NCBI GenBank assembly: GCA_964601015.1
Contig: CAZRLY010000001.1
Location: 1-62,809 of the forward strand
Length of the DNA stretch: 62,809 bases
Reading direction: 5' to 3'
Source: an uncultured bacterium
GTDB taxonomy: Bacteria; Poribacteria; WGA-4E; DTYX01; CAZRLY01
Shown here: piece by piece, positions 39,946-60,737 of the stretch
Layout of the letters: every line of letters starts with the position of its first letter
How positions within the stretch are numbered: the first letter of the stretch is position 1
Notes under the pieces: model-generated
The model's database searches: none
What the model was told of the DNA's origin: nothing
What the model saw: only the letters and a program-made list of their open reading frames with translations
Translations under genes and position numbers: made by a program

Positions 39946-41646
39946 TCACCTGCGCATCATTTCATCCAGCATGCGTCTTGCCTCCCCGCTTTCCTCCGAT
40001 TCTGGATATTCCTCTACGATTTTTTGGAGGATGTGTTTTGCCGCCTCCGTTTTCTCTTTGGATGGTTTGAGGAGACACATAGCCTTTCTGAATTTTGCAT
40101 GTAGCGCTCTTGAACCTTCCGGGGCGATTTGCAGAATCTGCTCGATATACTCAATGGATTTCTCTGCTTCGCCCATTCTTTCGTAGCATCGACTCAAACC
40201 GTCAAGAGACTCCATCGCAAATATCAGGTCATTTTGCTCTTTCATCTTTTCGTACAAAACGATGGCACCTTCACAATCCTCCATCTCTTCAAGCATGTGG
40301 GCTAAATTGCGCGATATATCCATCTCCGTTATTTTGTCTGGTGCCTCTTTAATCGCGTCGCGCAGCAAATTGACCGCCAATTCAGGTTGCCCGAATTCAA
40401 TTAGTTGATGTGAAAAGCGCGTTGCCGCCCGAATTTTTACTCTTCGTATGGGCGATTCCTTCGCCAATTTTACTACAATTTCCAATGCTTCATCTTGCCG
40501 TCCCACTTCCATGAGCAGATTGATTGCCGACATCTGCGCTTCGGCAGCCTGTTGCGTATTCGGATATTTGCTCACAACTTCCCCGTAGACTTGTAAAGCC
40601 TCTTCAATTTGTCCGGCATGTTGATAAACTTTACCGATATCTCTGAGAGCCTCCAATGCTATTGGCGATACGATCTCACCGCTTGCTAACTTTCGTAACA
40701 TTGCAATAGCTTTCTCCGTTTCGCCTATACTTACATAGCTTTCCGCAGCCTTCCTGTAAGCCTCTACTGATTCATAATAGCCTTCGTATTTTGTACCCGC
40801 CATGTATGCTTCCGTTGCCGCCGCCGGGTCAATTTTCGACAGAATATCTCCCTTTCTCAACGCGGCATGAGCCGCTTCCCACGTATCAGGATACTTTGAT
40901 ATAACCTCATCACATAGCGCGACTGCTTTATCAAACATACCCTTCTGTTCATAACGTTCGAGCATCCTCTCTACTATTTCAAATGGCATGATATCTGTTC
41001 GGATGCGGGCATAATACTTGATGGCTGCTTCATCCTCCCCGCGTTTTGCGTAAATATCGCCAAGCCTTGCCAGCGTACGGAGAGTGCGTCTATGTAGCGG
41101 ATAATCTTTTTGCATCTTATCGGCAATCTCCGCAACTTCCTTCAACATTCCCCTCTTCGCATAGGTTTCTGCCATGATTGCCATAGCTTCCAACGCAAAC
41201 TCTTCACCAACATATTTCGGCGCAATTGCATCATACCACCTCTTAACCTCCTCCGTGTTGTTCTGCTCATGAGCAAATCGCATCATCTGCAACGATGCTT
41301 CAGCAGCTTCAGAAGGATTGCCGGCGTTTCTTAACATCTCCTGCAACATCTCATCTGCTTCCTCTTTTTTGCCCGTTTTTATGTAATAGTCAATTATCTT
41401 ATTCTGCGCCCATTTTGCCTCCCATGTCCACGGGAAATTTTCCACCATCTTCTGGCATTCCTTGACAGCTTCCTCCACCTTCCCTTCGTCGAAAAGTTTT
41501 TGTATCTCTTCAGGCGTGAGAGCTTGGTATATCTCCTCTTCGCCCTCCTCTATTTCCTCGGCTTCCTCCTGCGCCACAGCCTGCATAAACGCGGATGAAG
41601 CAATAAACACGGTTAAAACTAAGATTAACGCAAATTTAATACGCAT
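39946..41646 (-). CDS. Secreted tetratricopeptide-repeat protein
   Basis: Signal peptide MRIKFALILVLTVFIASSAFMQAVA after GGAGG. TPR-like A/Y/G periodicity throughout. Confidence 0.8.
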   Translation of the reverse strand: MRIKFALILVLTVFIASSAFMQAVAQEEAEEIEEGEEEIYQALTPEEIQKLFDEGKVEEAVKECQKMVENFPWTWEAKWAQNKIIDYYIKTGKKEEADEMLQEMLRNAGNPSEAAEASLQMMRFAHEQNNTEEVKRWYDAIAPKYVGEEFALEAMAIMAETYAKRGMLKEVAEIADKMQKDYPLHRRTLRTLARLGDIYAKRGEDEAAIKYYARIRTDIMPFEIVERMLERYEQKGMFDKAVALCDEVISKYPDTWEAAHAALRKGDILSKIDPAAATEAYMAGTKYEGYYESVEAYRKAAESYVSIGETEKAIAMLRKLASGEIVSPIALEALRDIGKVYQHAGQIEEALQVYGEVVSKYPNTQQAAEAQMSAINLLMEVGRQDEALEIVVKLAKESPIRRVKIRAATRFSHQLIEFGQPELAVNLLRDAIKEAPDKITEMDISRNLAHMLEEMEDCEGAIVLYEKMKEQNDLIFAMESLDGLSRCYERMGEAEKSIEYIEQILQIAPEGSRALHAKFRKAMCLLKPSKEKTEAAKHILQKIVEEYPESEESGEARRMLDEMMRR

Positions 41647-41888
41647 AATTTGTACCTCCAGTCTAAAATTTGATTTACCTTTTAATTTAGCATATTTTAT
41701 CAAGCGCGTCAAGCAAAATCCTAATGACACCTCCCTTCATGTGAAGAGATTTTTCGGTGTATCGCATATTTCAATTGACAAAAAGGTTACAACAATGAAA
41801 ACAAAAAGACAAATACTTTTTGACCCTTTGGGATTTTGTGGAGAAATGAATCTTGGAAACCAAGGTTTGAATCAATGAATTGTAAAAA

Positions 41889-41920
41889 GCACGAAAATTC
41901 TTTCATGGGGAATTTCTGAC
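41889..41920. repeat. Two sequence blocks shared with the 3493-3550 intergenic region
   Basis: GCACGAAAATTC (41889-41900) is the reverse complement of 3493-3504. ATGGGGAATTTCTGAC (41905-41920) is the reverse complement of 3535-3550. Confidence 0.5.
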
Positions 41921-42113
41921 TGTACTATCACATATTGTTTGAGAATCCTCTCGTAGTGGGACTCTAAGCTTTTGATACTTCATCATAATAGGTAACCGCG
42001 CGCGCGGGCTTGTTTGGAAGTATCGGTATTCTCCTCCCCGAATGGCCGCAGTAAAACAAAATTATCAAGCATTTAGTGATATGTACCCAGACAAATTTAT
42101 TTAATGGTACACT

Positions 42114-42173
42114 GCTCGACTTGGATTGCTAAATCCAAGTCTTTCCCGATGGATTTAGCAATCCATCGGGAGC
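42114..42173. repeat. Paired-hairpin (REP/BIME-like) element, copy 3 (loop variant)
   Basis: GCTC-GACTTGGATTGCTAAATCCAAGTC (42118-42141) ... CCCGATGGATTTAGCAATCCATCGGG (42145-42170)-AGC. Confidence 0.75.
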
Positions 42174-42375
42174 GGCGAATATGAAAATAATTATGTCCGA
42201 CTACTTAGTAGACGATTACAAAATGACCTCTAAAGCCCCATGTGGAGCAACTTGGTGCCGTGTTGTCTTAGTGCAAAAGCCGCCCACTACTGGGTTTGAG
42301 AGATCTTTCCCTCCAATGGAGAGAGAAAAAAGACTTCCTGGCAAGATAGAAGAGTGGACATTTTCGTGGAAAATT

Positions 42376-42421
42376 GGTATTCTCCTTTGTGTAAAACAAG
42401 ATTATATTTAAGGAGAATACC
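42376..42421 (+). promoter_or_regulatory. Hairpin sequestering the transposase Shine-Dalgarno
   Basis: GGTATTCTCCTT (42376-42387) is the perfect reverse complement of AAGGAGAATACC (42410-42421). The ATG is at 42423. Confidence 0.55.
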
Positions 42422-42422
42422 G

Positions 42423-43601
42423 ATGAACCATGAATATTCTACCCTTCCTTTTAGCTTTCGTCAAGTCTTTTCTGAAGTTTTATCCGAAGGCGAAGCACTT
42501 GGTCTTGAGAGTGATGTCTTGTTGGCTTTATTACTTCAACCTTTAGTCAGTGCTCATTTCAAGGATGCCGAAGAGAAAATCCATCATAGAATGGATCGGC
42601 TTCGCGCTGCTTGCCATAAGAATGCGACCAAGATTATGCGTCTGTTAATGAAACTCTCCTTGCTTCTATTGGTTGATTTCCTCCTTCGCTATCAAGAAGC
42701 CCAAACACCATCTCAAAAGACTCGTTCTCGTCTGGTTCTCTGTGGTGATGATTCTCTGTTAGTTCACGCCGAGGAGAGTAATCAAGTTGATGTGGTTAAT
42801 CTCTGGAGTACCTTGTATAAGACGTATCGCAAAGCTCATGACTTGGTTCTCCTCGGGGTTACCGTTGGTGCAAAACGGGGTTCTTTTTTCTTCCCCCTCT
42901 GGGTGGAACTATGGCATCAGCCTGGGATGCGAAATCAAACTCGTCCTCAACGGATGGCCGCTGCTCTTTACCGTTTGAAGGAAGCATTAGTTGATTATGG
43001 TCTTTCCCTTGAGGGTATCGATTTTGCTGCTGATAACGGTTATCTCTCACCTGTGGTTGCCAAAGCAGTCAAAGCGTGCAACTTGGTGATGACTACCAAG
43101 CTGAGAAGCAACCAAGAAGTAACCTTACTCTCTGGTGAGAAGATGAGCCTAACCCAAATCAGGGAGCAGATGAAAACTCAACCGATACGCCATGATCCAA
43201 GAGCCGGAAAACAAGCCTATTACTGGAGAACAGAGGCGATTCACCCATATCTGGGAGTGGGAACCCTGGTCATTCAGCGACGCAAATTGCGTAGCGGGGG
43301 ATTTCAATATCACTCTCACTTTAGCCAGCATAAGGATGCCAAAGCAATAACCGTGCTGCAGATTTCGGCGAGACGTTGGCCAGTGGAAGTTTTTTTCCGA
43401 GAATCAAAACAGCAATTCTCATTAGGGCATTTATCCTACCGCAAGTGGTCATCGCTACGGGGGCATGTCGCCATCAGGGGGTTGCTATATTTTATCTTTG
43501 CATTAGTTCGGCGAAAGCTAAAATGGAAAAGAAGCAAGAAAACAATCGGCGCTCTAAAGCGACGATTTAGAGAAGCATTTATGACCCTTTTTACCCCTTG
43601 A
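42423..43601 (+). CDS. IS4/IS701-like DDE transposase
   Basis: Candidate DDE residues in 'LVLCGDDSLLV', 'IDFAADNGYLS' and 'RRWPVEVFFRESKQQFSL' (the Y/R-x-x-R-x3-E-x6-K type signature of IS4-related transposases). Confidence 0.8.
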   Translation: MNHEYSTLPFSFRQVFSEVLSEGEALGLESDVLLALLLQPLVSAHFKDAEEKIHHRMDRLRAACHKNATKIMRLLMKLSLLLLVDFLLRYQEAQTPSQKTRSRLVLCGDDSLLVHAEESNQVDVVNLWSTLYKTYRKAHDLVLLGVTVGAKRGSFFFPLWVELWHQPGMRNQTRPQRMAAALYRLKEALVDYGLSLEGIDFAADNGYLSPVVAKAVKACNLVMTTKLRSNQEVTLLSGEKMSLTQIREQMKTQPIRHDPRAGKQAYYWRTEAIHPYLGVGTLVIQRRKLRSGGFQYHSHFSQHKDAKAITVLQISARRWPVEVFFRESKQQFSLGHLSYRKWSSLRGHVAIRGLLYFIFALVRRKLKWKRSKKTIGALKRRFREAFMTLFTP

Positions 43602-43749
43602 GAGTGTGAACATGACATACCCCCTGATGCAAAAAAGTGCATCACAAAAAACTTTGCTGGCTAAAAGAAAAATGAGGGGTGGCTTTCCTTCTTTTGACCA
43701 GCACTAACTAGTACACGTGCGCGCAAATTTTTGACCCATCTCTCGATTT

Positions 43750-43850
43750 AGGGGAGTAGGCGAGTAAAAGAGAGCATTGGAGCGTTGGAGCGTTGGAGCA
43801 AAAGAGAACATTGGAGCTTTTGCCCCATCTCCCCAATGCCCCAGCGCTCT
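43750..43850. repeat. Octamer short tandem repeats (RTTGGAGC) between convergent genes inside the element
   Basis: ATTGGAGC GTTGGAGC GTTGGAGC (43775-43798), then ATTGGAGC again at 43809-43816, followed by a C-rich partially complementary tract. Confidence 0.7.
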
Positions 43851-43884
43851 TTATCGTCCACATATCCACTCAAACAAAGGGAGG

Positions 43885-44784
43885 TTAAGAACTTACGCCC
43901 ACATGTACTAGAAACTCGTTGAAATCCTTATAGTCGGCGTACAGGTCGGACTTGTCCAGAAGGTCAACGCCTTGTAGCTCGTTCCTGAAATGCTCAGTTA
44001 GTTCTCTCCCGCTCTGGTCGCGGTCAAGGTATAGGTAAACCTTATTCACTCCCATTTCCTTGATAGCTTCTACTGTCCTGTCCTTCATCGCTACAGAGTT
44101 CATCACAATCACTGGTGTGGTGATGTCCTTGCCATAATGAGTGAGAGCCGATAGAAAGTCGATGAATCCTTCAAAGACCGTCACAGCGTCCACTTCCTCC
44201 CCTGCTTTTCTTTTAGCCAGCAATTCCTTTTTTCCAATAATTGTTATATTCTTCGTGCCGTGTACCCCTTTGAAATAGGGGTTTCTGAGTTCATGTCCTT
44301 CGCTTTCGTTCTTGAACGCAAGCGCAAAGTAATTCTTGCCCTTCCGTGTGTAGTAAATTTCCTTCACGTAAGGACGGGCGGTGTATTCGGATATGCCATG
44401 TCCTCTTAGATACTCGGTCAATGCTCTGTTTTGTAGCGATTGAATCTTTCGGACTTCTAGCGGATTACTGGTGATTTTGGTCGGGGTTATAGGTTTAACG
44501 GGTTCTATCCTCTGTTGCCCCATCAGATTTTCAAGCTGACGTAGTGCTTTGGAGATAGAGGCAAGGTTGTAATACTCCATAACGAAATCAAGGACATTTC
44601 CGCCTTTACCTTCTCCGAAGTCATGCCAGATGTTCCGCTCCACATTGACGCTAAATGATGGTTCGGTTTCCTTCCGCAAGGGACTGAAGTATAGAAGCTC
44701 GTCTCTGTGTTGATGATGCGGCTGATGTCCGAGCTGGTCAAGTATTTCACTCAGTGGTATCTGTTTCGCTTGCTTGCTGTTCAT
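43885..44784 (-). CDS. Toprim-domain primase-like protein of mobile-element type
   Basis: The N-terminus 'MNSKQAKQIPLSEILDQLGH...YFSPLRKETEPSFSVNVERNIWHDFGEGKGGNVLDFV' matches the degenerate CHC2-finger/Toprim proteins common on mobilisable transposons. The C-terminal 'VFEGFIDFLS...YLYLDRDQSG' is Toprim-like. Confidence 0.65.
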   Translation of the reverse strand: MNSKQAKQIPLSEILDQLGHQPHHQHRDELLYFSPLRKETEPSFSVNVERNIWHDFGEGKGGNVLDFVMEYYNLASISKALRQLENLMGQQRIEPVKPITPTKITSNPLEVRKIQSLQNRALTEYLRGHGISEYTARPYVKEIYYTRKGKNYFALAFKNESEGHELRNPYFKGVHGTKNITIIGKKELLAKRKAGEEVDAVTVFEGFIDFLSALTHYGKDITTPVIVMNSVAMKDRTVEAIKEMGVNKVYLYLDRDQSGRELTEHFRNELQGVDLLDKSDLYADYKDFNEFLVHVGVSS

Positions 44785-45076
44785 CTTCTGAACTTTCCAG
44801 TTGTTTCGGTTCTTCAAACATATCAATAGTCTTGTCATCACGTTCCTGTTTGCGCTTCTTGATGTAGGTTTTGGCAAACGTTACACGACTACCGTTAAAT
44901 ACTATCATTGGGTTGATGAAGTAGACATTGGAAAGTGTACTGCGAGCTAGAGAACCTTGTCTGATTAGTTCTCCAACCCCTTTGAATACACTATTTACCG
45001 ATTTATAGCCTGTCTGCTACATGCATTCTTTAGGGTCAAAGATTATCCTATCCTCATTCATTCTCAGGATTTTCAT
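44747..45076 (-). pseudogene. Winged-helix (RepL-like?) gene interrupted by an in-frame TAG
   Basis: ATG at 45076, and an in-frame TAG at 45017-45019 after 19 codons. The frame then continues for 89 codons ('...GELIRQGSLARSTLSNVYFINPMIVFNGSRVTFAKTYIKKRK...') to the TGA at 44747, overlapping the Toprim start. Confidence 0.35.
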
Positions 45077-45451
45077 TACTAAAAAAACAGCATTGAGTCG
45101 ACATTCTAAAGCAAAAGCGCTAAAGTGAAACTGAACTAAAATAGGCTTAAGATGCCCTACCAGTCTGCTTTTGCACCAAGGGGGGATGACTTATTACCCG
45201 ATGAATACTTATTCAGAGGTACATGGTGTAATCGTCTACTTAGTACATAAAGAACTCATATTTTACCTCCAAATCAATTGTCTTGTTTTTATACTGACCA
45301 ACAAAATATCCTGTGGAAAGGTACAGAAGGCTTAATTATAAGAGAAAAATATAATAATGTCAAGAGGATATTAGAGCAAATGCTTATTTTGTCTTGATAA
45401 ATAACGATAGAGATGTTATCATTTCACTAAATCCACTTTGAGGAGAAAGAT

Positions 45452-46510
45452 ATGAGAACAATCAAGTTAGGACTTATCGGTGCTGGTGGTATCTCGCAGG
45501 CTCATTGCCGGGCGATTGCTTCCATTGACGGCGCTGAGATTATTGCTGCGAGTGACTTAGTTCCAGCTCAACTGGATAGAGCAAGGGAACGCTGGGGCAT
45601 TGAAAAGACTTTTAGCGATTATAACGAGATGCTCAAGATGGACGAACTGGATGCGGTGCTTGTCTGTACGCCGACAGCAGTTCACGCTCCGCCAACAGTT
45701 GCAGCGCTCAGGGCAGGGAAACACGTGCTGTGTGAGAAGCCGATGGAAGCCACGCTTCCTGCCGCGACTGAGATGGTACGTGCTGCCCATGAAATGGATA
45801 AAATCCTGATGGTTGCGCTTAAACTGCGTTTCACCCCTCAAGTCATAAAAGCCAAGGAGGTAGTTGACGCAGGAACACTGGGTGATATTTACTATGCGGA
45901 GACAATTGCTGACCGACGCAGAGGTAATCCGGGAGGTAGCTTTATCCGCAAAGCAACTGCCGGCTTAGGCGCAGCCGCTGATATTGGTGTTTATGCGCTG
46001 GATACGGCGCTGTATTTGATGGGACATCCCAAACCTGTGGCGGTTTCTGGGATAACATCCAATTATCTCAGTCTGCATAACACATGGAACCCTGCTCTCA
46101 GAGAGACAGAGGTTGAGGATTTCGCTATTGGATGGGTACTCTTTGATAATGGCGCACGTATGGTTTTCAAAACCTGTTGGTGCATGAATATGGATTCGCT
46201 TGGGGGTACGATTTTCCTCGGCACAAAAGCTGGACTCCGCATTGGTGTCGGTGAAGTCCGCGGACCGCAAGGTGGGGTAACCGTTTATGGCGATGAAGAT
46301 GGTGAGATTAAGGATGAAACCTTCACGGATTTTGAATCGGTTGACGTGTTCCGCGCTGAAGACGCGGCGTTCGTAGATGCTGTGCGCGAAGGGAAGCCCT
46401 CACCGATTGACCCGGATGGCATATTGCTGACAAACGTAATCATTCAGGGCGTCATTGATTCATCGGAAGCCGGTGGCCGTGAGGTTGAAGTCACAGTGCC
46501 GACTTTTTAG
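45452..46510 (+). CDS. Gfo/Idh/MocA-family oxidoreductase
   Basis: 'KLGLIGAGGISQAH' Rossmann and 'CEKPMEA' motif. Confidence 0.85.
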   Translation: MRTIKLGLIGAGGISQAHCRAIASIDGAEIIAASDLVPAQLDRARERWGIEKTFSDYNEMLKMDELDAVLVCTPTAVHAPPTVAALRAGKHVLCEKPMEATLPAATEMVRAAHEMDKILMVALKLRFTPQVIKAKEVVDAGTLGDIYYAETIADRRRGNPGGSFIRKATAGLGAAADIGVYALDTALYLMGHPKPVAVSGITSNYLSLHNTWNPALRETEVEDFAIGWVLFDNGARMVFKTCWCMNMDSLGGTIFLGTKAGLRIGVGEVRGPQGGVTVYGDEDGEIKDETFTDFESVDVFRAEDAAFVDAVREGKPSPIDPDGILLTNVIIQGVIDSSEAGGREVEVTVPTF

Positions 46511-46596
46511 GTGATTTTTGTGCTTATAAACTATTTTTATAGGTGCGGAAATTAGAATTTACTTACGATAAGGGCAAAATAAAAGGCAGGAGAAAA

Positions 46597-47388
46597 ATGG
46601 CAAAAATAGGTGTAATTCACTATAATTTTCCAGGTTTTTTGTTTACTGACTTTCTGAAGTACGCCAGCGAGACAGGCTACGGCTATGTGGAACTTCAGAT
46701 TGGAGATGTTTGGGGAGAGAACTCTGAGAGCAAAGCTGAAGAGGTAAGAAAAGAAGTTGAGTCCTTAGGGCTTAAAGTTTCCGCTCTGGCGGCTGGCAAC
46801 GACTTTGTGCAGCTTGAGGAGGAGGCTATCAAGTTTCAGGTTGACCGTATGAAGCAAATTTGCGGTTTGGCGAAGATTCTCGGCACAAATGTTATTCGTA
46901 CAGAAGGCGGCGGACCGAAAGCCTCTGTACCAGAAGAGAGATGGGTAGAAGCTATGGCGGGATGTTTGACGCGCTGTTTGGACTTTACCGAAGAGATGGA
47001 CATCTACTTTGCCGTTGACAACCACGGAGTTGTTACCAATGACGGCGATTTGCAGGTGGAACTGTTTGAAACAGTAGGTTCAAAACACGTCGGCGCGAAT
47101 CTGGATACCATGAACTATCGTTGGTTTGGAAATGATTTGAAAGCGATAGATAGATTCTACGAAATCATCGCGCCGTATACTTTTCACAGCCACATGAAAG
47201 ATGGCACAGGTAGCCGGTCAAACTATCGCGGCGAAGCACTTGGCGAAGGCGAAATTAATTTGGCTTATGCCATCAGTTGCTTGAAAAAGGCAGGATACGA
47301 CGGAGTCTGGTGTTCCGAATATGAAGGACGAGAAGGCTCCGCTATCGGTTATCGGAAGTGTTATGAGTATCTCAAGGCGAATGTCTAA
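46597..47388 (+). CDS. Sugar phosphate isomerase/epimerase (xylose isomerase-like TIM barrel)
   Basis: Family-typical 'GYGYVELQ', 'NHG' and 'HMKD' segments. Start trimmed to MAKIGVI after AGGAG. Confidence 0.8.
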   Translation: MAKIGVIHYNFPGFLFTDFLKYASETGYGYVELQIGDVWGENSESKAEEVRKEVESLGLKVSALAAGNDFVQLEEEAIKFQVDRMKQICGLAKILGTNVIRTEGGGPKASVPEERWVEAMAGCLTRCLDFTEEMDIYFAVDNHGVVTNDGDLQVELFETVGSKHVGANLDTMNYRWFGNDLKAIDRFYEIIAPYTFHSHMKDGTGSRSNYRGEALGEGEINLAYAISCLKKAGYDGVWCSEYEGREGSAIGYRKCYEYLKANV

Positions 47389-47392
47389 GAGT

Positions 47393-47454
47393 GTGTGTGA
47401 AAAGTCCAAATTATAAATTAGCAAAAATATCTATAATTTGGACTTCTCACACAC
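47393..47454. terminator. Long hairpin after the TIM-barrel gene
   Basis: GTGTGTGAAAAGTCCAAATTATA (47393-47415) pairs with TATAATTTGGACTTCTCACACAC (47432-47454). 23 bp with one mismatch and a 16-nt loop. No clear U-run. Confidence 0.45.
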
Positions 47455-47590
47455 GTTCTCACACCTGAAATACCACTTATTCCATTCCTCCTTTTCCCCC
47501 CAAATGCAGACTGCATCTGGATTATAAAATAATATGTGATAATACATAAATATAACAGCAATTTTGCAAAACCCCAGGAGGTTTTTTCCA

Positions 47591-50500
47591 ATGAAACATC
47601 AAGGTTTAAGGTTCAAAAGGAATTTGGAATGGAGCAGACGTGAAATCCCGCTTCGCTCTTGCGGGCAAACAGATGGGGTTGCACCTATTATCCATATCAG
47701 CCTTGTTTGTCTTGTTACTCTTGCTATCATTTGCAGTACGGCGAATGCTGAAGGGTGGCGGACTTATCGACATGACAATGCCCGGAGCGGCGTTACAACT
47801 GAGAAGGTGGCTACTCCGCTCTCGTTGCACTGGACATTCAAACCGACTCACGCTCCAAAACCTGCCTGGCCGAAGCCAGCGGAAGAGTTGCCAAGGACGC
47901 ACTTCGACAGTGCTTATCACTTGACTGTGGCGAACGAAACGGTTTATTTCGGTTCCTCAGTGGATAACAAGGTTTACGCGCTTGGAGCGAAAAAAGGCAA
48001 AATACGCTGGACATTCTTCACGGAAGGGCCCATTCGATTTGCCCCAACACTCTGGAAGAAAAAGGTTTACGTCGGCTCAGATGACGGCTATGTATATTGT
48101 TTACAAGCTAAAGATGGCAAGTTAGTCTGGAAGTACAGAGCCGGGCCCAGCGATGAAAAGGTAATAGGAAATGGAAGGATGATATCCCTGTGGCCGGTCA
48201 GGACGAGCGTTTTAGTTGATGAGGGGGTTGTCTATTTCGGCGCGGGCGTTTTCCCTTACGAAGGCATTTACATCTGCGCACTCAACGCCGCCGACGGCTC
48301 AGTCGTATGGAAAAACGACACAATCGGTGACCGCGCACATGAACTGAGCTACTGCGGCATATCACCCCAAAGCTATTTAGTTGCTTCCGAAAACGTCCTC
48401 TATGTGCCTTCTGGTAGGGCTATGCCAGCAGCCTTTGACCGGAAAACAGGGCAATTCCTCTACTACTGTTCGGCTGGAAGTAAGGTAGGCGGGACATGGG
48501 CGTTGGTGGATAAGGACGAACTTATCGCAGGCGTGGATAAATCCGGCTCTCCCGTCAAAATAGCATACGAAGAGAAGACGGGGAAGAGAAAGGGCGATGT
48601 ATACGCGTGGTTCCCAGGACTTGATTTGGTCGTAACGCCTGGTGTTGCCTATGCTCTCACCGAAAATGGAATCCACGCTATAGCCCGAGCAGCATATCCG
48701 CACATCAGCGAAAAACTGAATGCCATAAGCGCGGATAAGCAGAAGCTAACAGGGATGCTGTCGGACTTGAGGAGGAAACTCGCTGAAGTTGATGAGAAAA
48801 TGCGCGAGGAGGTTAATAAACAGTTGAACGAAACGGCGCAGAGGATAAACGAACTGGCTGAAGAGGAGGAAGAAAGTTTAAAAGCCGCTACCTGTAAGTG
48901 GCAGTATCTCCAGGGAAACCTCTGCTCTTTAATCCTTGTAGGCGACATGGTGTTTGCTGGAGGGGAAAACACAGTCATAGCAGTGAATGCTCAGACGGGC
49001 AGGAATGTCTGGAGCAGTGAGGTAGATGGTAAAGCTTATGGACTTGCCGCCGCAAACGGAAGTTTATTTGTCAGCACGGATAAAGGTTACATCCACTGCT
49101 TCAAGAAGGGGGAAGTATCCGGACCAAAAGTGATTAGTCCTCATATTGACTATTCGCCATATCCGGAGGACAAACTAACACCCGTCTATGAATCTGCGGC
49201 GGAAACAATCGCAAAGGAAACGAAAATTACGAAGGGTTACTGTTTGGTGTTGGACTGCGGCGTTGGTCGACTTGCGTTTGAGCTTGCCAAATTGACCCAG
49301 TTGAAAATCGTCGGAATAGAGGAGGATGAGAAAAAGGTCAAGACGGCGAAGGAGAGGTTAGACGCGGCAGGATTATATGGTTCCAGAGTGGTGGTTGAGC
49401 AGTGGGGACTGTCGAGTCTCCCTGACTACTTCGCCAACCTCATCATGTCCAATGGGACGATGGTACCCCGTGATGCAAAGCTTTGGTCAGAAGAAATGTT
49501 CCGCCTTCTGCGTCCCTGCGGGGGCGTTGCTTACATTCCGTATACATCAAGCTGGATACCGACGCATGCCGAATACCGGACACAAGCATCAAGTATCAAA
49601 TACCTATCACTGGTCAAACGCGGAAAACTGGAGGGGGCGGGAAGTTGGACGCACCTCTACGCGAATCCCCAAAATACAGCGTGTTCCGATGACCGATTGG
49701 TCAAATACCCGCTTGGAGTTCTTTGGTTTGGAGAACCAGGCCCCGCGGGGATAGTCGAGCGACATGCAAGGATGCCCAGTTCGGTTTCAATTGACGGGCG
49801 TTTGTTCATCCCTGGAGAGGACGCTATCATGGCTTACGACGCTTATAACGGCACGTTCCTCTGGAAGAAGGAGATACCAGGCTCTGTGCGAGCGCGAGCG
49901 GATGTGGATGGGGGGAACATCGTAGCCACTGATGATGGACTTTACGTCGCTGCCAGAGACAAGTGCTACCGTTTGAATCCCGCTACCGGCGATACGGTGC
50001 GTATGTACGAGATGCCAGAAATGATTGTTGGGCGGGAAAGTCGGGTGTCGCCCTTTCACTTCGTGAAACCCCGACTTTCCCACCCACCGAGTGTAACGAG
50101 GAAAAGGGCGACAGCGGACGAGTACGCAGGTAGCTCACACCGCTGGGGGTATGTGGCTTGTGAGGGGCAAATCCTCTTCGGCTCAACGACAATGCCCTTG
50201 CTGATGGAATATGCTGATTCCTGGGAACTGCTCGTGGATAATGGGAGTTGGATAAATACAGATGATATTCCGCTCAAGTGGACTGTCTATGAGAAGTACA
50301 TAAAAAGCTATATGTCGAAATATCCGACGCCGGATGAGAATGCGAAGGCAGCTTTCCATAGAGGGGGATTGTTATGGGGAGCGATGACGGTTTTCCCATC
50401 GTGGGGAGGTGAGATAAGCCCAAAAGGTGCTTTGACCGATTTCATGATGGCAAGCGACTCGATGTTCGCAGTAGACACAGAGACGGGTGAGATGTTGTGG

Positions 50501-52834
50501 GTATATCCCGGAAATAGAATCGCCCATATAACAACCACCATCGGAGGCGGAAGAATATTCTTCGCCGAAAGCTCGGTTACAGAGGCGCAGAAGGAAAAGG
50601 CGTTCAAAGATAAGCAGGATTTAGTTGAGAGAGGAATATACGAGGTGAGCGATGAGGCAAGTTTGAAACCCGATGATGCTGACGTAAGGCTTGTCGTCGC
50701 TCTTGATGCAACTACAGGAAAGGTACTCTGGGAGAAACCCCTTGATTTGACAGGTTGCGGCGGTGATAAGATGGGAACAGCGTATCATGATGATGGCATC
50801 CTGCTGTTTTTCGGGCATTTCAGCAACCACGATAGAGGGGCGTTTGACAGCGGCTCTCTGAGGTGGCGACGTATCACGGCTCTATCCGCTCAAACCGGCG
50901 AAGTCCTTTGGTCGCGTCCTCTCAACTATCTCCGTCGCCCGTTAATCGTAGGCGACACCATCACCATAGAACCGCGTGCTTGTGGCGTTCGCACGGGCGA
51001 GATTAAAATGCGCTCCCATCCCATTACAGGCAAGCGAGTCCCGTGGGAGTTCCTGCGCCCGGGACATAGCTGTGGTGTTACTTCAGCAACGCCGTATACC
51101 CTATTCTATCGCTCACGCAGCATCGCAATTGTTGACCTTTTGGAGGACAGAGGATTGTCCATCTTCGGTGCCATCCGTCCGGGCTGCTGGCTTGAGCTAA
51201 TAGCGGCTAACGGACTGTTGCTCTTCCCAGAGGCAAGTTCCGGCTGTACGTGTTCGTTCCCGCTCAGGTGTTCGGTAGCCATGGCATACAAAAAAACGAG
51301 GGATACCAAAAGGTGGACGGCATTTATTACACACGGCGCTATGACTCCCGCTAAATCCCTTGCCATCAACCTCGGCGCTCCCGGCGACATGAAGGACGAC
51401 AGCGGAACGCTCTGGTTCGGCTATCCGCCTCCCAAAACCTCGTATGGTGTGAAGTTCACGCTCAACGAAAAAGTCATAGAGGGTATGGGGTATTTCTGCC
51501 GCGATTTCAGGGGTGAGAGTATTGAAGGGACGGACAAGCCGTGGCTCTTCACATCCGGGTATTTGGGGCTTCTACAATGCGAAGTGCCGTTGATAGATGA
51601 CGTTTGGGAGGAGGCTGGCGTCTACACCGTGCGCCTCGGTTTTGCCGCACCATCAGGCGACCAAATGGGGCAACGTGTCTTCAATGTCAAACTCCAGGGC
51701 GATGTCCTGCTGGAGGACTTCGACATCATCAAAGCGGCGGGTTCGCCGAACAAAGCCCTCATCAAAGAGTTCAACGGAATCAAGGTGGAAAATAACCTTG
51801 CGGTCAAACTCGTCCCGAATATAGCACATCCCACGGTTATACAGGCACCGATGCTCAACTTCATTGAAGTTGTCAGGGAGGATGTCGGAAAGATAACAAC
51901 TGTCAAACCGCTGAAGGAAAGCGAAGCGGATACACTGTCGCCCTTTTCCACCCTTAGATTGTTGAAGGAAGCGAAATCGGAACTCGACAAGCATAATCAA
52001 GAGAAGTCCCTGGAAACATACCACCGCATACTTGACGCCGCCCCCTCCGTTGAGTTCAAACTACAGGCGCTAAAAGGGATGGCTGACATCGGAAGTCTGA
52101 AATCTTTGAGCAGGATAAGAAGATACTACAAGGACGCCTCGCCCGTCCTCTGGAATTACAAAGTACCCTCCCCAGAGCTCAAAGACAGCGCCAGTAAGGT
52201 TTATGCCGCTATCGCCAACAACATGACGGAGGTAGATGAACAGAGGGCTATCAAGATGCTAAACCACGCTTTGGCGATGGTAAGTGGCCTGGATACCCAT
52301 CAGCAGTTGGTCGCCAGCCTCGAAAATCTAAGGGTTGAAGTCGGCGCTGACGCAACGAAGGCTGGTTTCATCACCCGCTGGCATCTCATCGGGCCGTTCC
52401 CCTGGGGTAGCAAGGAAAACACGCTGGACGAGGTATTCGTCAACGAGCCAAACGTGGACATACATCTGGTCAATGACGAGGCTCTGAAATGGTCAAAATA
52501 TGTGGGTGAGCAGGGAATGTGCAACCTTGGGAAACTCTTTGACCCAAATACTTATGTCTCGGTATACGCTTACGCCGAAGTCATTCTCCCTGAAGAAGGT
52601 GAGTTGTTGCTGAAAATCGGCAGCGATGACGGGTTCAAGTGTTGGTTCAACGGCGAGGAGGTAGGAAGGTTCGACGACAACAGAGTCTGGAAAGCCGATG
52701 AGGATATACTAAAGGTCAAAACGAAAAAAGGCACAAATACAATCCTGTTGAAAATCTCCCAAGCCGGCAACGAGTGGGCTTTCAGCGCAAAGCTGACGGA
52801 TGTGATTAAAGCAGGTGAGCAGGTGGGCAGGTGA
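47591..52834 (+). CDS. Giant exported multidomain protein: PQQ-like beta-propellers, embedded class I SAM-methyltransferase domain, malectin-like domain, helical repeats, C-terminal beta-sandwich
   Basis: Signal anchor 'IIHISLVCLVTLAIICSTANA'. Repeated 'VY.GS.DG.VYA' propeller blades. MTase motif I 'YCLVLDCGVGRLAFELA'. 'RVFNVKLQGDVLLEDFDIIKAAG' is malectin-like. 'IGSDDGFKCWFNGEEVG' is jelly-roll-like. ATG 9 nt after AGGAGG. Confidence 0.75.
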   Translation: MKHQGLRFKRNLEWSRREIPLRSCGQTDGVAPIIHISLVCLVTLAIICSTANAEGWRTYRHDNARSGVTTEKVATPLSLHWTFKPTHAPKPAWPKPAEELPRTHFDSAYHLTVANETVYFGSSVDNKVYALGAKKGKIRWTFFTEGPIRFAPTLWKKKVYVGSDDGYVYCLQAKDGKLVWKYRAGPSDEKVIGNGRMISLWPVRTSVLVDEGVVYFGAGVFPYEGIYICALNAADGSVVWKNDTIGDRAHELSYCGISPQSYLVASENVLYVPSGRAMPAAFDRKTGQFLYYCSAGSKVGGTWALVDKDELIAGVDKSGSPVKIAYEEKTGKRKGDVYAWFPGLDLVVTPGVAYALTENGIHAIARAAYPHISEKLNAISADKQKLTGMLSDLRRKLAEVDEKMREEVNKQLNETAQRINELAEEEEESLKAATCKWQYLQGNLCSLILVGDMVFAGGENTVIAVNAQTGRNVWSSEVDGKAYGLAAANGSLFVSTDKGYIHCFKKGEVSGPKVISPHIDYSPYPEDKLTPVYESAAETIAKETKITKGYCLVLDCGVGRLAFELAKLTQLKIVGIEEDEKKVKTAKERLDAAGLYGSRVVVEQWGLSSLPDYFANLIMSNGTMVPRDAKLWSEEMFRLLRPCGGVAYIPYTSSWIPTHAEYRTQASSIKYLSLVKRGKLEGAGSWTHLYANPQNTACSDDRLVKYPLGVLWFGEPGPAGIVERHARMPSSVSIDGRLFIPGEDAIMAYDAYNGTFLWKKEIPGSVRARADVDGGNIVATDDGLYVAARDKCYRLNPATGDTVRMYEMPEMIVGRESRVSPFHFVKPRLSHPPSVTRKRATADEYAGSSHRWGYVACEGQILFGSTTMPLLMEYADSWELLVDNGSWINTDDIPLKWTVYEKYIKSYMSKYPTPDENAKAAFHRGGLLWGAMTVFPSWGGEISPKGALTDFMMASDSMFAVDTETGEMLWVYPGNRIAHITTTIGGGRIFFAESSVTEAQKEKAFKDKQDLVERGIYEVSDEASLKPDDADVRLVVALDATTGKVLWEKPLDLTGCGGDKMGTAYHDDGILLFFGHFSNHDRGAFDSGSLRWRRITALSAQTGEVLWSRPLNYLRRPLIVGDTITIEPRACGVRTGEIKMRSHPITGKRVPWEFLRPGHSCGVTSATPYTLFYRSRSIAIVDLLEDRGLSIFGAIRPGCWLELIAANGLLLFPEASSGCTCSFPLRCSVAMAYKKTRDTKRWTAFITHGAMTPAKSLAINLGAPGDMKDDSGTLWFGYPPPKTSYGVKFTLNEKVIEGMGYFCRDFRGESIEGTDKPWLFTSGYLGLLQCEVPLIDDVWEEAGVYTVRLGFAAPSGDQMGQRVFNVKLQGDVLLEDFDIIKAAGSPNKALIKEFNGIKVENNLAVKLVPNIAHPTVIQAPMLNFIEVVREDVGKITTVKPLKESEADTLSPFSTLRLLKEAKSELDKHNQEKSLETYHRILDAAPSVEFKLQALKGMADIGSLKSLSRIRRYYKDASPVLWNYKVPSPELKDSASKVYAAIANNMTEVDEQRAIKMLNHALAMVSGLDTHQQLVASLENLRVEVGADATKAGFITRWHLIGPFPWGSKENTLDEVFVNEPNVDIHLVNDEALKWSKYVGEQGMCNLGKLFDPNTYVSVYAYAEVILPEEGELLLKIGSDDGFKCWFNGEEVGRFDDNRVWKADEDILKVKTKKGTNTILLKISQAGNEWAFSAKLTDVIKAGEQVGR

Positions 52835-52846
52835 GCGGGTGAGCGA
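52802..52846. repeat. Octamer-type short tandem repeat tract, copy 3 (GGTGAGCA GGTGGGCA GGTGAGCG GGTGAGCG)
   Basis: Read directly. It supplies the last codons (AGEQVGR) and the stop (52832-52834) of the giant ORF. Confidence 0.8.
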
Positions 52847-52896
52847 GAAAAACTTCGCTTCCCTGTCTTTTGTCAAACTTTTGAAAGGAACATCCC

Positions 52897-58814: not shown

Positions 58815-58980
58815 TTTTTGATTACTCCTTTCATCAAAGTCACTATTGGGCGTTTATGTTATTATAACCGATTAAAACGATGCTGTCAAACATTTTTTTT
58901 TTGGATTTTTCCTCTGCGCGCTCTTCAAAGTCCATGATGAGTTGGGCAGAACGAAAGATGCCGACGCCATTAATTTCCAA

Positions 58981-59010
58981 TTGACAGATACCGCGTCCTT
59001 GATGTACAAT
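58981..59010 (+). promoter_or_regulatory. Candidate sigma70-type promoter
   Basis: TTGACA (58981-58986), 18-nt spacer, TACAAT (59005-59010), 21 nt upstream of the ATG at 59032. Confidence 0.4.
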
Positions 59011-59031
59011 AAAAAAAAGGGGAAGTCGCAG

Positions 59032-59571
59032 ATGAAAGTCAAAAAACTCATTAGTTTCATATTGGTTATTGTTTTTATGATGGTGTTTGGGTGTAGTAAC
59101 TTGCTTGCTGTTGAGGCTAAACCTCCCTTGAGTGAGATAAGAATTACAGGTGAAATTTTAGCTGGTGGAGTAGGAGGAATTCTTATTGGGGTTGGAGGAT
59201 GCCTCATAGGCGCTGAGTATGAGAAGTATAAGTATGGAGAGGGCGAATACAGAGGTCTGTGGAGTGCTTTGTTTGTTGCTCCTATAGGTTATACACTCGG
59301 TAATGCCATTGGTGTTTATTTAGTTGGAAACATAGGTGATGAAACAGGGTCGTTTTTAGCAACTTTGGGAGGTAGCATTTTAGGATTGGGAGTAGGGGTT
59401 GTTCTTGCTCTATCTGCTGATTCCTTCAATGAACGAGCAGCTTTTCCTACCTTTGTTGCTAGCTCATCTATCTGCGCTACTATTGGATTTAATCTGACTC
59501 GCAGGTATAACTCACCACCCGCCACTAGAACTGCTCCCATCCGTCTAGATTTGGTAAAGGTGAGGTTTTAA
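59032..59571 (+). CDS. Lipoprotein/membrane protein with glycine-zipper segments
   Basis: Lipobox-like 'MMVFGCS'. Gly-rich 'GGVGGILIGVGGCLIGA' and 'GGSILGLGVGVVLA' segments. Confidence 0.5.
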   Translation: MKVKKLISFILVIVFMMVFGCSNLLAVEAKPPLSEIRITGEILAGGVGGILIGVGGCLIGAEYEKYKYGEGEYRGLWSALFVAPIGYTLGNAIGVYLVGNIGDETGSFLATLGGSILGLGVGVVLALSADSFNERAAFPTFVASSSICATIGFNLTRRYNSPPATRTAPIRLDLVKVRF

Positions 59572-59975: not shown

Positions 59976-60737
59976 TCACAATTCGTGCACACTCGTTGGT
60001 ATCCCGATTCTTTTTTCTCCCTCACGCAAACGCAGGGCGTAGGTATCAGCCTCTATCGCCTTTCGGGTTATTTCATACATATTCTTTGCCGAGATGCGCC
60101 TGACGATTGACTCTCCTATGACAATCTTCGTCTGCGCTCCCGCGCGGAAGAGGGGCGCGTCCATTCGGTTAAAATCGTAAGGAAGGGGCATGTTGTGTAC
60201 TTTGGCAGGCAGCGGGCGTTTTAGTCCATTTTCATCAATGATGGTGGCGTTTTTAGTCTCCCTGAAACGGACGTATTCGGGTGCTATCTTTTCCTCGATT
60301 GCTTCGAAGGTGGTGTTGGAATTGTGCGAGACTCCCAGAAGCAGGATTTGAGCATCCAGGTTTATGAATTTTTGAAAAGGACTTTCTGCCCCGCACGGGG
60401 TAAGAGAGTGAGTTGCTGTCAGTTCCTTTGCCAGTCCGCCTATGGCACAAACGGATTCGGTGAGATGATGGCTGCGATGGGTAGAACGCCTACGCAACGC
60501 TTCTGAAATAGCGCCCAGTTCTGAGGGTGAGTTGCGCATGTCGAAAACCCCGCCGTCTTTTTTCTGTGAGTATGTGCCAGCGGGCGCAGCCACGGTTCCT
60601 TCAGGTTCGACGGCTTCGAGGAGAGCGTCAATGACCGCGTCCGCGCCACCTTCGACATATCCGAATTTGCTGAGTGATGAGTGGCAATAGACGATGTCGC
60701 CGCTTTGAACACCAACACGCCGAAACCCTTCATACAA
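59976..60737 (-). CDS. AAC(3)-family aminoglycoside N3-acetyltransferase-like protein
   Basis: The N-terminus 'GDIVYCHSSLSKFGYVEGGADAVIDALLEAV..EGTV' and 'LLGVSHNSNTTFE' resemble AAC(3)/YokD-type enzymes. Confidence 0.7.
   Translation of the reverse strand: MYEGFRRVGVQSGDIVYCHSSLSKFGYVEGGADAVIDALLEAVEPEGTVAAPAGTYSQKKDGGVFDMRNSPSELGAISEALRRRSTHRSHHLTESVCAIGGLAKELTATHSLTPCGAESPFQKFINLDAQILLLGVSHNSNTTFEAIEEKIAPEYVRFRETKNATIIDENGLKRPLPAKVHNMPLPYDFNRMDAPLFRAGAQTKIVIGESIVRRISAKNMYEITRKAIEADTYALRLREGEKRIGIPTSVHEL

Follow-up and report, generated by a model that had tools for sequence, protein, structure and literature searches.

A 3-kb element in a Poribacteria contig, probably a ~1.5-kb insertion sequence enlarged by decaying plasmid replication debris

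We analysed a 62,809-nucleotide contig of an uncultured Poribacteria bacterium (CAZRLY010000001.1, assembly GCA_964601015.1; the whole stretch is called the window below), which contains, at positions 42209–45238, a 3-kb element with a DDE transposase gene, a Toprim primase gene and part of a repL gene. The explanation that we favour, and regard as probable, is that the element is a DDE insertion sequence (IS) of ~1.5 kb that received a scrap of a plasmid replication module and then a miniature inverted-repeat transposable element (MITE), the insert now being decaying debris. Homology shows that the scrap comes from a small mobilisable plasmid, of whose repL it holds the 3′ half, together with the primase gene to which repL is translationally coupled; it entered in a single insertion of ~1.3 kb at the transposase stop codon or within ~20 nt of it. 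Later, a 205-bp MITE entered a CTAG near the primase stop, and repL carries an amber codon. The replicon that hosts the element is probably the Poribacteria chromosome.

The inverted repeat that the initial annotation had placed at 42209 and 45238, with CTTAG directly outside both tips (42204–42208 and 45239–45243), was recovered by a repeat search, with arms at 42202–42225 and 45222–45245 that are 24 nt long and 88% complementary. The 12-nt tip TAGACGATTACA occurs in the 62.8-kb window only at 42209 (forward strand) and 45238 (reverse strand), the chance expectation being 0.23 for this window with one mismatch allowed, and a second matching block, TGCAAAAGC, stands 58–71 nt from the tip at either IS end. 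The parts of the IS are as follows (comparison loci are given by L numbers).

42204–42208, no strand: left copy of the target duplication, CTTAG (5 bp; TTA alone if G...C are taken as the IS tips)
42209–42282, + strand: IS left end, comprising the tip TAGACGATTACAAAATG and the subterminal motif AGTGCAAAAGCCG at 42270–42282; the same bipartite end is present in L021–L025, L034 and L053
42376–42421, + strand: hairpin GGTATTCTCCTT / AAGGAGAATACC, which buries the ribosome-binding site of the transposase gene
42423–43601, + strand: DDE transposase gene, 392 aa; Pfam DDE_Tnp_1 (PF01609), 3.8e-10
45129–45238, − strand: IS right end, comprising a remnant of the last ~7 transposase codons, the motif GGTGCAAAAGCAG (45165–45177) and the tip (45222–45238)
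45239–45243, no strand: right copy of the target duplication, CTTAG (repeat family D10)

To place these ends in the context of the family, we compared the IS with relatives from seven fetched metagenome loci and two loci from Poribacteria metagenome-assembled genomes (MAGs). All of the compared relatives have the tip TAGACGATT[A/G]C..., the GGTGCAAAAGCAG motif ~60 nt inside it and CTAAG or CTTAG outside it, and the right end of the window IS aligns gaplessly with the 3′ ends of L052, L053 and L023. Judged by these shared features, the repeats at 42209 and 45238 are the true termini of one IS, as the initial annotation had claimed. That annotation had also named closer ends, for example near 43700, as evidence that would speak against these termini. 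In relatives the right tip does lie closer, ~90 nt after the transposase stop (87–95 nt in all plain IS copies), but it is the same sequence as that at 45238, and no internal right end was found near 43700 in the window, where nothing matches the tip with up to four mismatches or the subterminal motif with up to two; the termini are therefore upheld. The lengths of the relatives are given below.

L023: 1508 bp, complete IS copy
L024 and L025: 1495 bp each, complete IS copies
L021: 1869 bp; a ~220-bp repeat is nested downstream of the transposase gene
L034: 1884 bp, with a related repeat before the transposase gene
L035: 944 bp, deleted IS derivative

The two longer copies (L021:2319–4187 and L034:3416–5299) are 92% identical to one another, and their ~220-bp repeats, with ends CATGTGAAAAG..., are 87% identical; the repeats lie on different sides of the transposase gene, and nested small repeats thus recur in the noncoding parts of this IS family.

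The target of the IS, CTTAG, consists of the last four bases (CTTA) of a 127-bp MITE plus the next G, at a site between a TPR gene and an oxidoreductase gene.

42080–42207, no strand: 127-bp MITE carrying two GGATT-N4-AATCC hairpins; in the element's own genome, blastn finds ~12 full-length copies (~98% identical), plus longer variants and fragments

All copies of this MITE end in ...GACTACTTA, with unrelated sequence beyond. The ~12 paralogous copies thus serve as proxies for the empty site, with a single terminal CTTA followed by divergence; at the window IS, by contrast, CTTAG stands on both sides, with unique sequence beyond the right copy. This comparison indicates that the CTTAG duplication is real, and since the duplication includes the MITE end, the 127-bp MITE was there first and the IS followed. 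The CTWAG flanks are matching direct repeats in the window, L021, L023 and L025. With C-TWA-G as the target, G...C is also a possible reading of the tips, so that duplications of 5 bp and 3 bp are indistinguishable. We infer that the transposase recognises and binds the bipartite ends (a 12–17-nt tip plus the GGTGCAAAAGCAG motif ~60 nt inside it) and makes a staggered cut at CTWAG; the IS would insert there with a 5-bp duplication (3 bp if the tips are G...C), and the present copy would have landed on the CTTAG that straddles the end of the 127-bp MITE.

The initial annotation had put the element at about twice the normal size for such an IS, and this holds, with relatives of ~1.5 kb and ~1.5 kb of extra DNA. 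The features of the extra DNA are as follows.

43612–45128, no strand: insert of ~1.5 kb at the transposase stop, delimited by alignment with the 3′ ends of L023, L025, L052 and L053
43661–43711, − strand: displaced last 16 primase codons and native stop, cut off by the MITE; homology to L026/L027, which breaks off at 43907, is taken up again by the blastn match 43711→43653
43708–43911, no strand: 205-bp MITE, core 43712–43907, with inverted ends TACACGTGCGCG / TACATGTGGGCG and a duplicated CTAG, holding the octamer tract
43885–44784, − strand: Toprim primase gene as now read, 299 aa; Toprim_2 1.9e-13 and Zn_ribbon_DnaG 2.9e-9 (Pfam); DNA primase in PHROGs
44747–45097, − strand: 3′ half of repL, corresponding to homologue residues ~92/102–207; overlaps the primase start by 38 nt, as in plasmids

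On the left, IS homology fades at 43593–43620. On the right, it resumes at 45124–45133 with a remnant of the last seven transposase codons, which reads (T)ELK*A* in the L052 frame versus NQLKAA*, and the normal spacer and right end follow. The left part of the IS (~1385–1412 bp) and the right part (~106–115 bp) sum to 1.49–1.52 kb, compared with 1495–1508 bp in the relatives, and therefore point to one insertion at the transposase stop and not to two IS pieces flanking foreign DNA. The nesting offered as an alternative in the initial annotation, an IS within a replicative element, has to be reversed: the plasmid fragment lies inside the IS, and removal of ~43612–45128 leaves a colinear IS of ~1.5 kb.

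A different history could place plasmid DNA between IS parts. A plasmid might have integrated between two IS copies, by recombination or through a cointegrate, to give IS–plasmid–IS, after which two deletions would have stripped the first IS of its right end and the second of its left end and transposase, with most of the plasmid lost as well. Plasmids commonly integrate by way of IS elements; in the window IS, similarity between the two ends is confined to the tip and the subterminal motif, as it might be for ends from two different copies; and a related plasmid contig (L026) carries another DDE transposase. However, the plain 1495-bp copy L025 also has ends that are alike only at the tip and motif, the matching CTTAG flanks fit one insertion event, and no plasmid relative carrying this IS was found. 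Given, in addition, that two independent deletions would have to end within ~20 nt of one IS coordinate and leave exactly one IS, we consider this history quite improbable. The insert was also considered as a mobile element in its own right and rejected: it has no inverted ends of its own, and the only candidate for a target duplication, the 5-nt TGAAC shared by 43607–43611 and 45132–45136, is not beyond chance. Under the single-insertion reading, entry by illegitimate capture (end-joining or microhomology) would fit best, because both junctions carry short unassignable stretches and no element ends. The filler at the left junction includes, at 43622–43641, a hairpin with a perfect 7-bp stem (TGATGCA-aaaaag-TGCATCA), and no known RNA family was detected in 41500–45600 at E ≤ 0.1.

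The insert resembles one module of a known type of plasmid. By blastn, the window segments 45066→43907 and 43711→43653 are 78–81% identical to plasmid repL–primase pairs (L026, L027 and L028; about 81% for the circular L027), a homology that spans repL codon ~102 to just past the primase stop. Primase homologues that are 75–83% identical lie on metagenome contigs of 4–12 kb, and in the three plasmid loci that were fetched the primase gene is preceded by a RepL gene of 207–210 aa with a 38-nt overlap. L027 is a 5196-bp circle (identical 115-nt ends) that encodes MobA/MobL, RHH, RepL and Toprim proteins; being circular and encoding a MobA/MobL relaxase, it is therefore a small mobilisable plasmid. 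In common with such RepL (PF05732)–primase–MobA/MobL plasmids, the window has kept the 38-nt gene overlap and the 18-nt repeat described below. It differs from them in holding only 1.3 kb, which lacks the first ~100 repL codons, the upstream repeats, the relaxase gene and the RHH gene; in the absence of these parts the insert cannot replicate or be mobilised on its own.

More distant relatives of the primase, at 33–40% identity, are found on Bacteroidota plasmids. A phage origin of the primase was rejected, given that the phage-side matches reach at most 36% (to unannotated gut contigs) or 23–26% (to Listeria and Sporosarcina phage primases) and the plasmid context is much closer.

The DNA homology of the repL fragment to L026, L027 and L028 ends sharply at 45066 against all three, although the plasmids stay alike upstream of this point, and tblastn extends the homology to 45097. 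It follows from the sharp break that only the 3′ half of repL is present, cut inside the RepL domain at about codon 100. The fragment matches Pfam RepL with E = 0.021 and 14.8 bits (cut-off 20.3) over profile positions 71–142 of 164; the full-length RepL of L027 passes the same model with 30.1 bits against the cut-off of 20.3. An in-frame amber codon, TAG, stands at 45017–45019, where homologues have Ser, Leu or Glu, and the same TAG is present in four other assemblies of the locus. The amber-interrupted winged-helix gene of the initial annotation is thus confirmed and can be named as RepL-type. Read-through or recoding of the amber codon was rejected, since the frame is 5′-truncated inside the RepL domain and its homologues carry Ser, Leu or Glu at the codon.

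The assignment of the primase gene as Toprim primase-like stands, with Toprim_2 and CHC2-like domains, and the Toprim motifs VFEGFID and LDRDQSG, which hold the conserved Glu and the DxD, are readable in an intact domain. Compared with the N-terminal module of DnaG-type primases, the window primase has the Toprim Glu and DxD and lacks the Cys/His zinc ligands. Neither it nor its L027 homologue has any cysteine, and the L026 homologue has a single one outside the finger region; the CHC2-like domain is therefore zinc-less, and the Zn_ribbon_DnaG match reflects fold only. At its 3′ end, the gene is interrupted by the 205-bp MITE, which occupies a CTAG located 16 codons upstream of the primase stop and supplies the tail VHVGVSS*, so that the last 16 residues are replaced by seven. 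Plasmids L026 and L027 show the corresponding empty site (...GAGTTT-CTAG-TTAA...), and in silico removal of the MITE and one CTAG yields a primase open reading frame (ORF) of 307 aa, compared with 308–309 aa in the plasmids.

The plasmids also carry a short repeated motif, TTGCT(A/G)GCTAAAAGAAAA (18 nt), with 3–5 copies in each of the RepL–primase plasmids L026, L027 and L028: one falls within the coding sequence of the primase, a second stands in inverted orientation at the stop of that gene, and the remaining copies, an inverted pair among them, are upstream of repL. Two copies survive in the window, at 44206–44223 and at 43654–43671; the latter, TTGCTGGCTAAAAGAAAA, falls within the displaced primase-end region. 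These motifs look like iterons or an origin.

Sequence 43707–43911, which contains the MITE, is 99.5–100% identical to six other sites in the genome (C27, C231, C197, C24, C141 and C46), with one further copy at 77% identity; C17 is another location of the element. CTAG stands on both sides of every copy, with a conserved A before the left CTAG. The sequence has the features of a MITE, namely terminal inverted repeats, a target duplication, near-identical copies and no ORF, and the near-identity of its seven copies suggests a recent burst. Shorter relatives share the ends only (for example, C4:44551–44676). The octamer-repeat tract that the initial annotation listed among the parts of the element is present (43778–43800, CATTGGAG CGTTGGAG CGTTGGAG in tandem); it is not a feature of its own, being the interior of this multicopy MITE. 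IS5-type elements prefer CTAG or YTAR targets with a 4-bp duplication. The 205-bp element resembles IS5-type MITEs in its terminal inverted repeats, its want of coding capacity, its seven near-identical copies and its duplicated CTAG; it differs in that a TA duplication within CTAG is possible, and in that no parent autonomous IS was identified in the 73%-complete genome.

Since this MITE exceeds the length of typical short reads and has six other near-identical copies, the locus might be an assembly artefact, either two loci joined through the MITE or a chimera of strains. Independent metagenome contigs do break inside it. One JGI metagenome contig (L033, from five samples) equals window 41963–43824 at 100%, and others (L029–L032) cover 43796–51879 or 43796–52881, including the same repL TAG; L033 and L029–L032 nonetheless overlap by 29 nt at their mid-MITE break. 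Moreover, the MITE separates the last 16 codons of the primase, which are found on its transposase side, from the remainder of the gene, and these pieces are contiguous in the plasmid homologues, for which reason we take the join to be genuine. No right IS end is present on the transposase side, and on the primase side both a left end and a transposase are absent. An artefact is, on this evidence, extremely unlikely.

Together, the truncation of repL, its amber codon and the MITE in the primase gene lead us to regard the cargo as decaying debris. The initial annotation had instead proposed a cargo-carrying IS, which does not hold for working passengers, given that repL lacks its first ~100 codons and carries an amber codon and that the primase gene is interrupted. 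A functional version of that proposal would be an active 3-kb transposon kept for a useful primase and perhaps a shortened RepL, an arrangement that corresponds to the 'transporter IS' of ISfinder usage, an IS with passenger genes. The primase might, for example, prime replication of the excised circle, or the Rep fragment and the 18-nt repeats might block plasmids of the same family in the manner of incompatibility. Both IS ends and a near-full transposase are intact, as is the Toprim domain, coupling of the primase start to the upstream frame persists, and two of the 18-nt plasmid repeats have been kept. There is also precedent in the IS4 family, in which elements of the IS231 group carry passenger genes (PMC2266710). 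Against this stand a repL gene without half of its RepL domain and with an amber codon fixed in five assemblies, the replacement of the primase tail by MITE sequence, and the loss of the plasmid promoter region and upstream repeats.

The distribution of the element bears on the same question. The composite is a single copy in its genome (5.55 Mb, 73% complete), in which no second copy of the transposase, IS ends, repL, primase or relaxase was found and only the two MITE families are repeated. Protein and contig collections yielded the composite at the window locus only, and no member of the IS family carrying these passenger genes was found elsewhere. The initial annotation had proposed a search for further copies and for the empty site, ...GACTACTTAG joined to TACATAAAG, and no second copy turned up in the element's own genome, nor an empty site in 40 related genomes or, as an exact pattern, in metagenome contigs. 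Among the 40 related genomes, examined with the joined flanks, conservation is limited to the oxidoreductase gene (70–75%); the genome is the sole member of its family, so that synteny is of no use here. Exact patterns of the empty-site and insert/IS-right junctions had no match in metagenome contigs, in a search that may omit records of the own genome. Overall, we judge a functional cargo IS to be unlikely.

According to De Palmenaer et al. (2008, PMC2266710), only IS231-group elements (1450–5400 bp) carry extra DNA with passenger genes, which lies between the left end and the transposase gene. Like them, the window element has one transposase gene and one pair of terminal repeats enclosing genes unrelated to transposition. 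Their passengers, however, are intact and the elements occur in several copies, whereas the extra DNA in the window lies at the transposase stop, holds truncated or interrupted genes and is present once. The element therefore has the formal anatomy of a cargo IS, without the intact passengers and multiple copies.

Several observations weigh against the favoured explanation or limit it. The element is identical over 1,448 bp in L029–L032, contigs that differ from the window at 11–35 sites in the adjoining 6.6–7.6 kb (1.4–5.3 differences per kb). This lack of polymorphism, which also counts in favour of a functional cargo IS, is better explained by a composite that arrived recently in finished form than by slow decay at the site, and would imply that the composite moved as a unit, although it may be an effect of chance or of consensus assembly. 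The flank differences are partly clustered, at 48208–48873 and 51519–51707, which suggests recombination tracts among strains. With regard to the genes, the primase has lost only its tail and its Toprim domain is intact, so that 'dead' is shown for repL and not for the primase. The nearest IS relatives are ~70% identical, which makes the IS breakpoints accurate to ~20 nt only. The junction fillers, ~30 nt at 43612–43641 and ~62 nt at 45067–45128, have no match in the own genome or in L021–L028. Finally, the flanks of L034 and L024 are not matching direct repeats, and the length of the duplication rests on four of six cases.

A bolder reading is a live hybrid, an IS that moves the primase and the plasmid repeat sites as real cargo and arrived recently in its present form. 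If this were true, the primase or Rep fragment and the repeats would support replication of the excised element or block plasmids of the same family. We hold it to be very improbable.

Turning from the insert to the IS that received it, the transposase retains the candidate catalytic residues D109, D204 and E322 in a motif check. In an alignment of 29 sequences it has all of the invariant residues, including D109 and E322; D204 is shared by at least 90% of the aligned sequences. The R318-(3)-E322-(6)-K329 signature is also present, with Ser315 in the Tyr position of YREK. The protein aligns with its relatives as far as ...RRFREAFMTLF and then lacks their last ~10 residues. Both ends, a near-full transposase and the candidate catalytic residues are kept, so that transposition of the 3-kb composite as one unit would in principle still be possible. 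The hairpin over the ribosome-binding site is kept in six of seven relatives, and in L024 it shows a two-sided compensatory change (GATATTCTCC / GGAGAATATC); we infer from this pattern that the start-codon hairpin limits translation of the transposase from outside transcripts.

The IS4/IS701-like character noted in the initial annotation is supported by the DDE_Tnp_1 match and by weak NCBIfam matches, the top ones being IS4_4 and IS701 models at 38–42 bits versus cut-offs of 150–250. The IS4 family test NF049925 scores 42.5 bits against a cut-off of 250, and the IS701 models also fall below theirs (NF033540, 38.5 bits versus 150; NF049999, 40.0 versus 170; NF049921, 27.4 versus 250). IS701, one of the 'emerging families' split from IS4 together with ISH3 and IS1634 (PMC2266710), is defined by a length of ~1.4–1.55 kb, a YREK motif that has lost its Tyr and a duplication of exactly 4 bp (PMC2266710); its end consensus, ---YACT-Y--YR, is according to the same source not representative of the whole family. 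The window IS resembles IS701 in its DDE_Tnp_1-type transposase, its R-(3)-E-(6)-K without the YREK Tyr (Ser315), its core of ~1.5 kb, within 1400–1550 bp, and its short target duplication of about half a helical turn; in addition, a set of 72,556 plasmid records gave a single named match to it, an 'IS701 family transposase' that is 28% identical. By contrast, its CTWAG duplication is 5 or 3 bp and not exactly 4 bp, because a cut symmetric about W gives 5 or 3. It also scores below the curated hidden Markov model cut-offs (38–40 bits versus 150–170), its tip TAGACGATTACA does not fit ---YACT-Y--YR, its ends are bipartite and extend up to ~80 nt, and its clade is known so far from Poribacteria MAGs and metagenome contigs only. 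From IS4 proper, with the full Y-(2)-R-(3)-E-(6)-K and a duplication of ~8–13 bp, it differs in having Ser for Tyr and 5-bp flanks.

A large protein collection contains ~40 homologues of the transposase, of which the full-length ones are 58–72% identical and 395–419 aa long; nearly all lie on contigs of 1.45–1.9 kb, the assembly pattern of a repeated IS. Among 176 genomes of the phylum, the transposase is present in three only, the own genome included, and the named ones are 'Candidatus Poribacteria bacterium' MAGs. By sequence, the IS belongs to a small uncharacterised IS4/IS701-related clade, so far from Poribacteria MAGs and metagenome contigs, and is best called a new Poribacteria-associated IS of the IS4/IS701-related group.

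The locus is ordinary mobile-element wreckage, of modest value for annotation and for linking a small plasmid family to its host. It defines the ends, CTWAG target and canonical size of an undescribed Poribacteria IS clade, and it shows that annotating the cargo of the window copy as a functional primase/regulator pair, or as a replicative element, would be mistaken. As a chromosomal scar, it links RepL–primase–MobA plasmids, otherwise orphan metagenome circles, to a Poribacteria-like host, in an uncultured group to which no plasmid is assignable by binning. For one IS and two families of MITEs it also provides naturally occurring pairs of sites before and after insertion, which are useful for cataloguing the repeat-rich mobilome of sponge-associated bacteria.

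Further observations concern the surroundings of the element. The 127-bp MITE has imperfect ends (TA[T/A]GTA..GACA..TTATTT), and the paired hairpins at 42114–42173, GACTTGGATT-gcta-AATCCAAGTC and TCCCGATGGATT-tagc-AATCCATCGGGA, form its core. Other copies lie on C205, C141, C56, C212, C255, C249, C143, C219 and C103, and variants of 148–151 bp with a third hairpin lie on C22, C3 and C17. To the left of this MITE, 41884–42081 is a patchwork of short repeats, 74–96% shared with C340, C117, C6, C163, C2 and C305. A 209-aa ORF at 58942–59571 on the + strand, 14 kb away from the plasmid scrap, matches no Pfam family and is 42% identical (E = 1e-15) to a 162-aa hypothetical protein of L027; it adjoins an ABC_N/MRB1590_C fragment and an aminoglycoside N-acetyltransferase-like gene (59979–60737).

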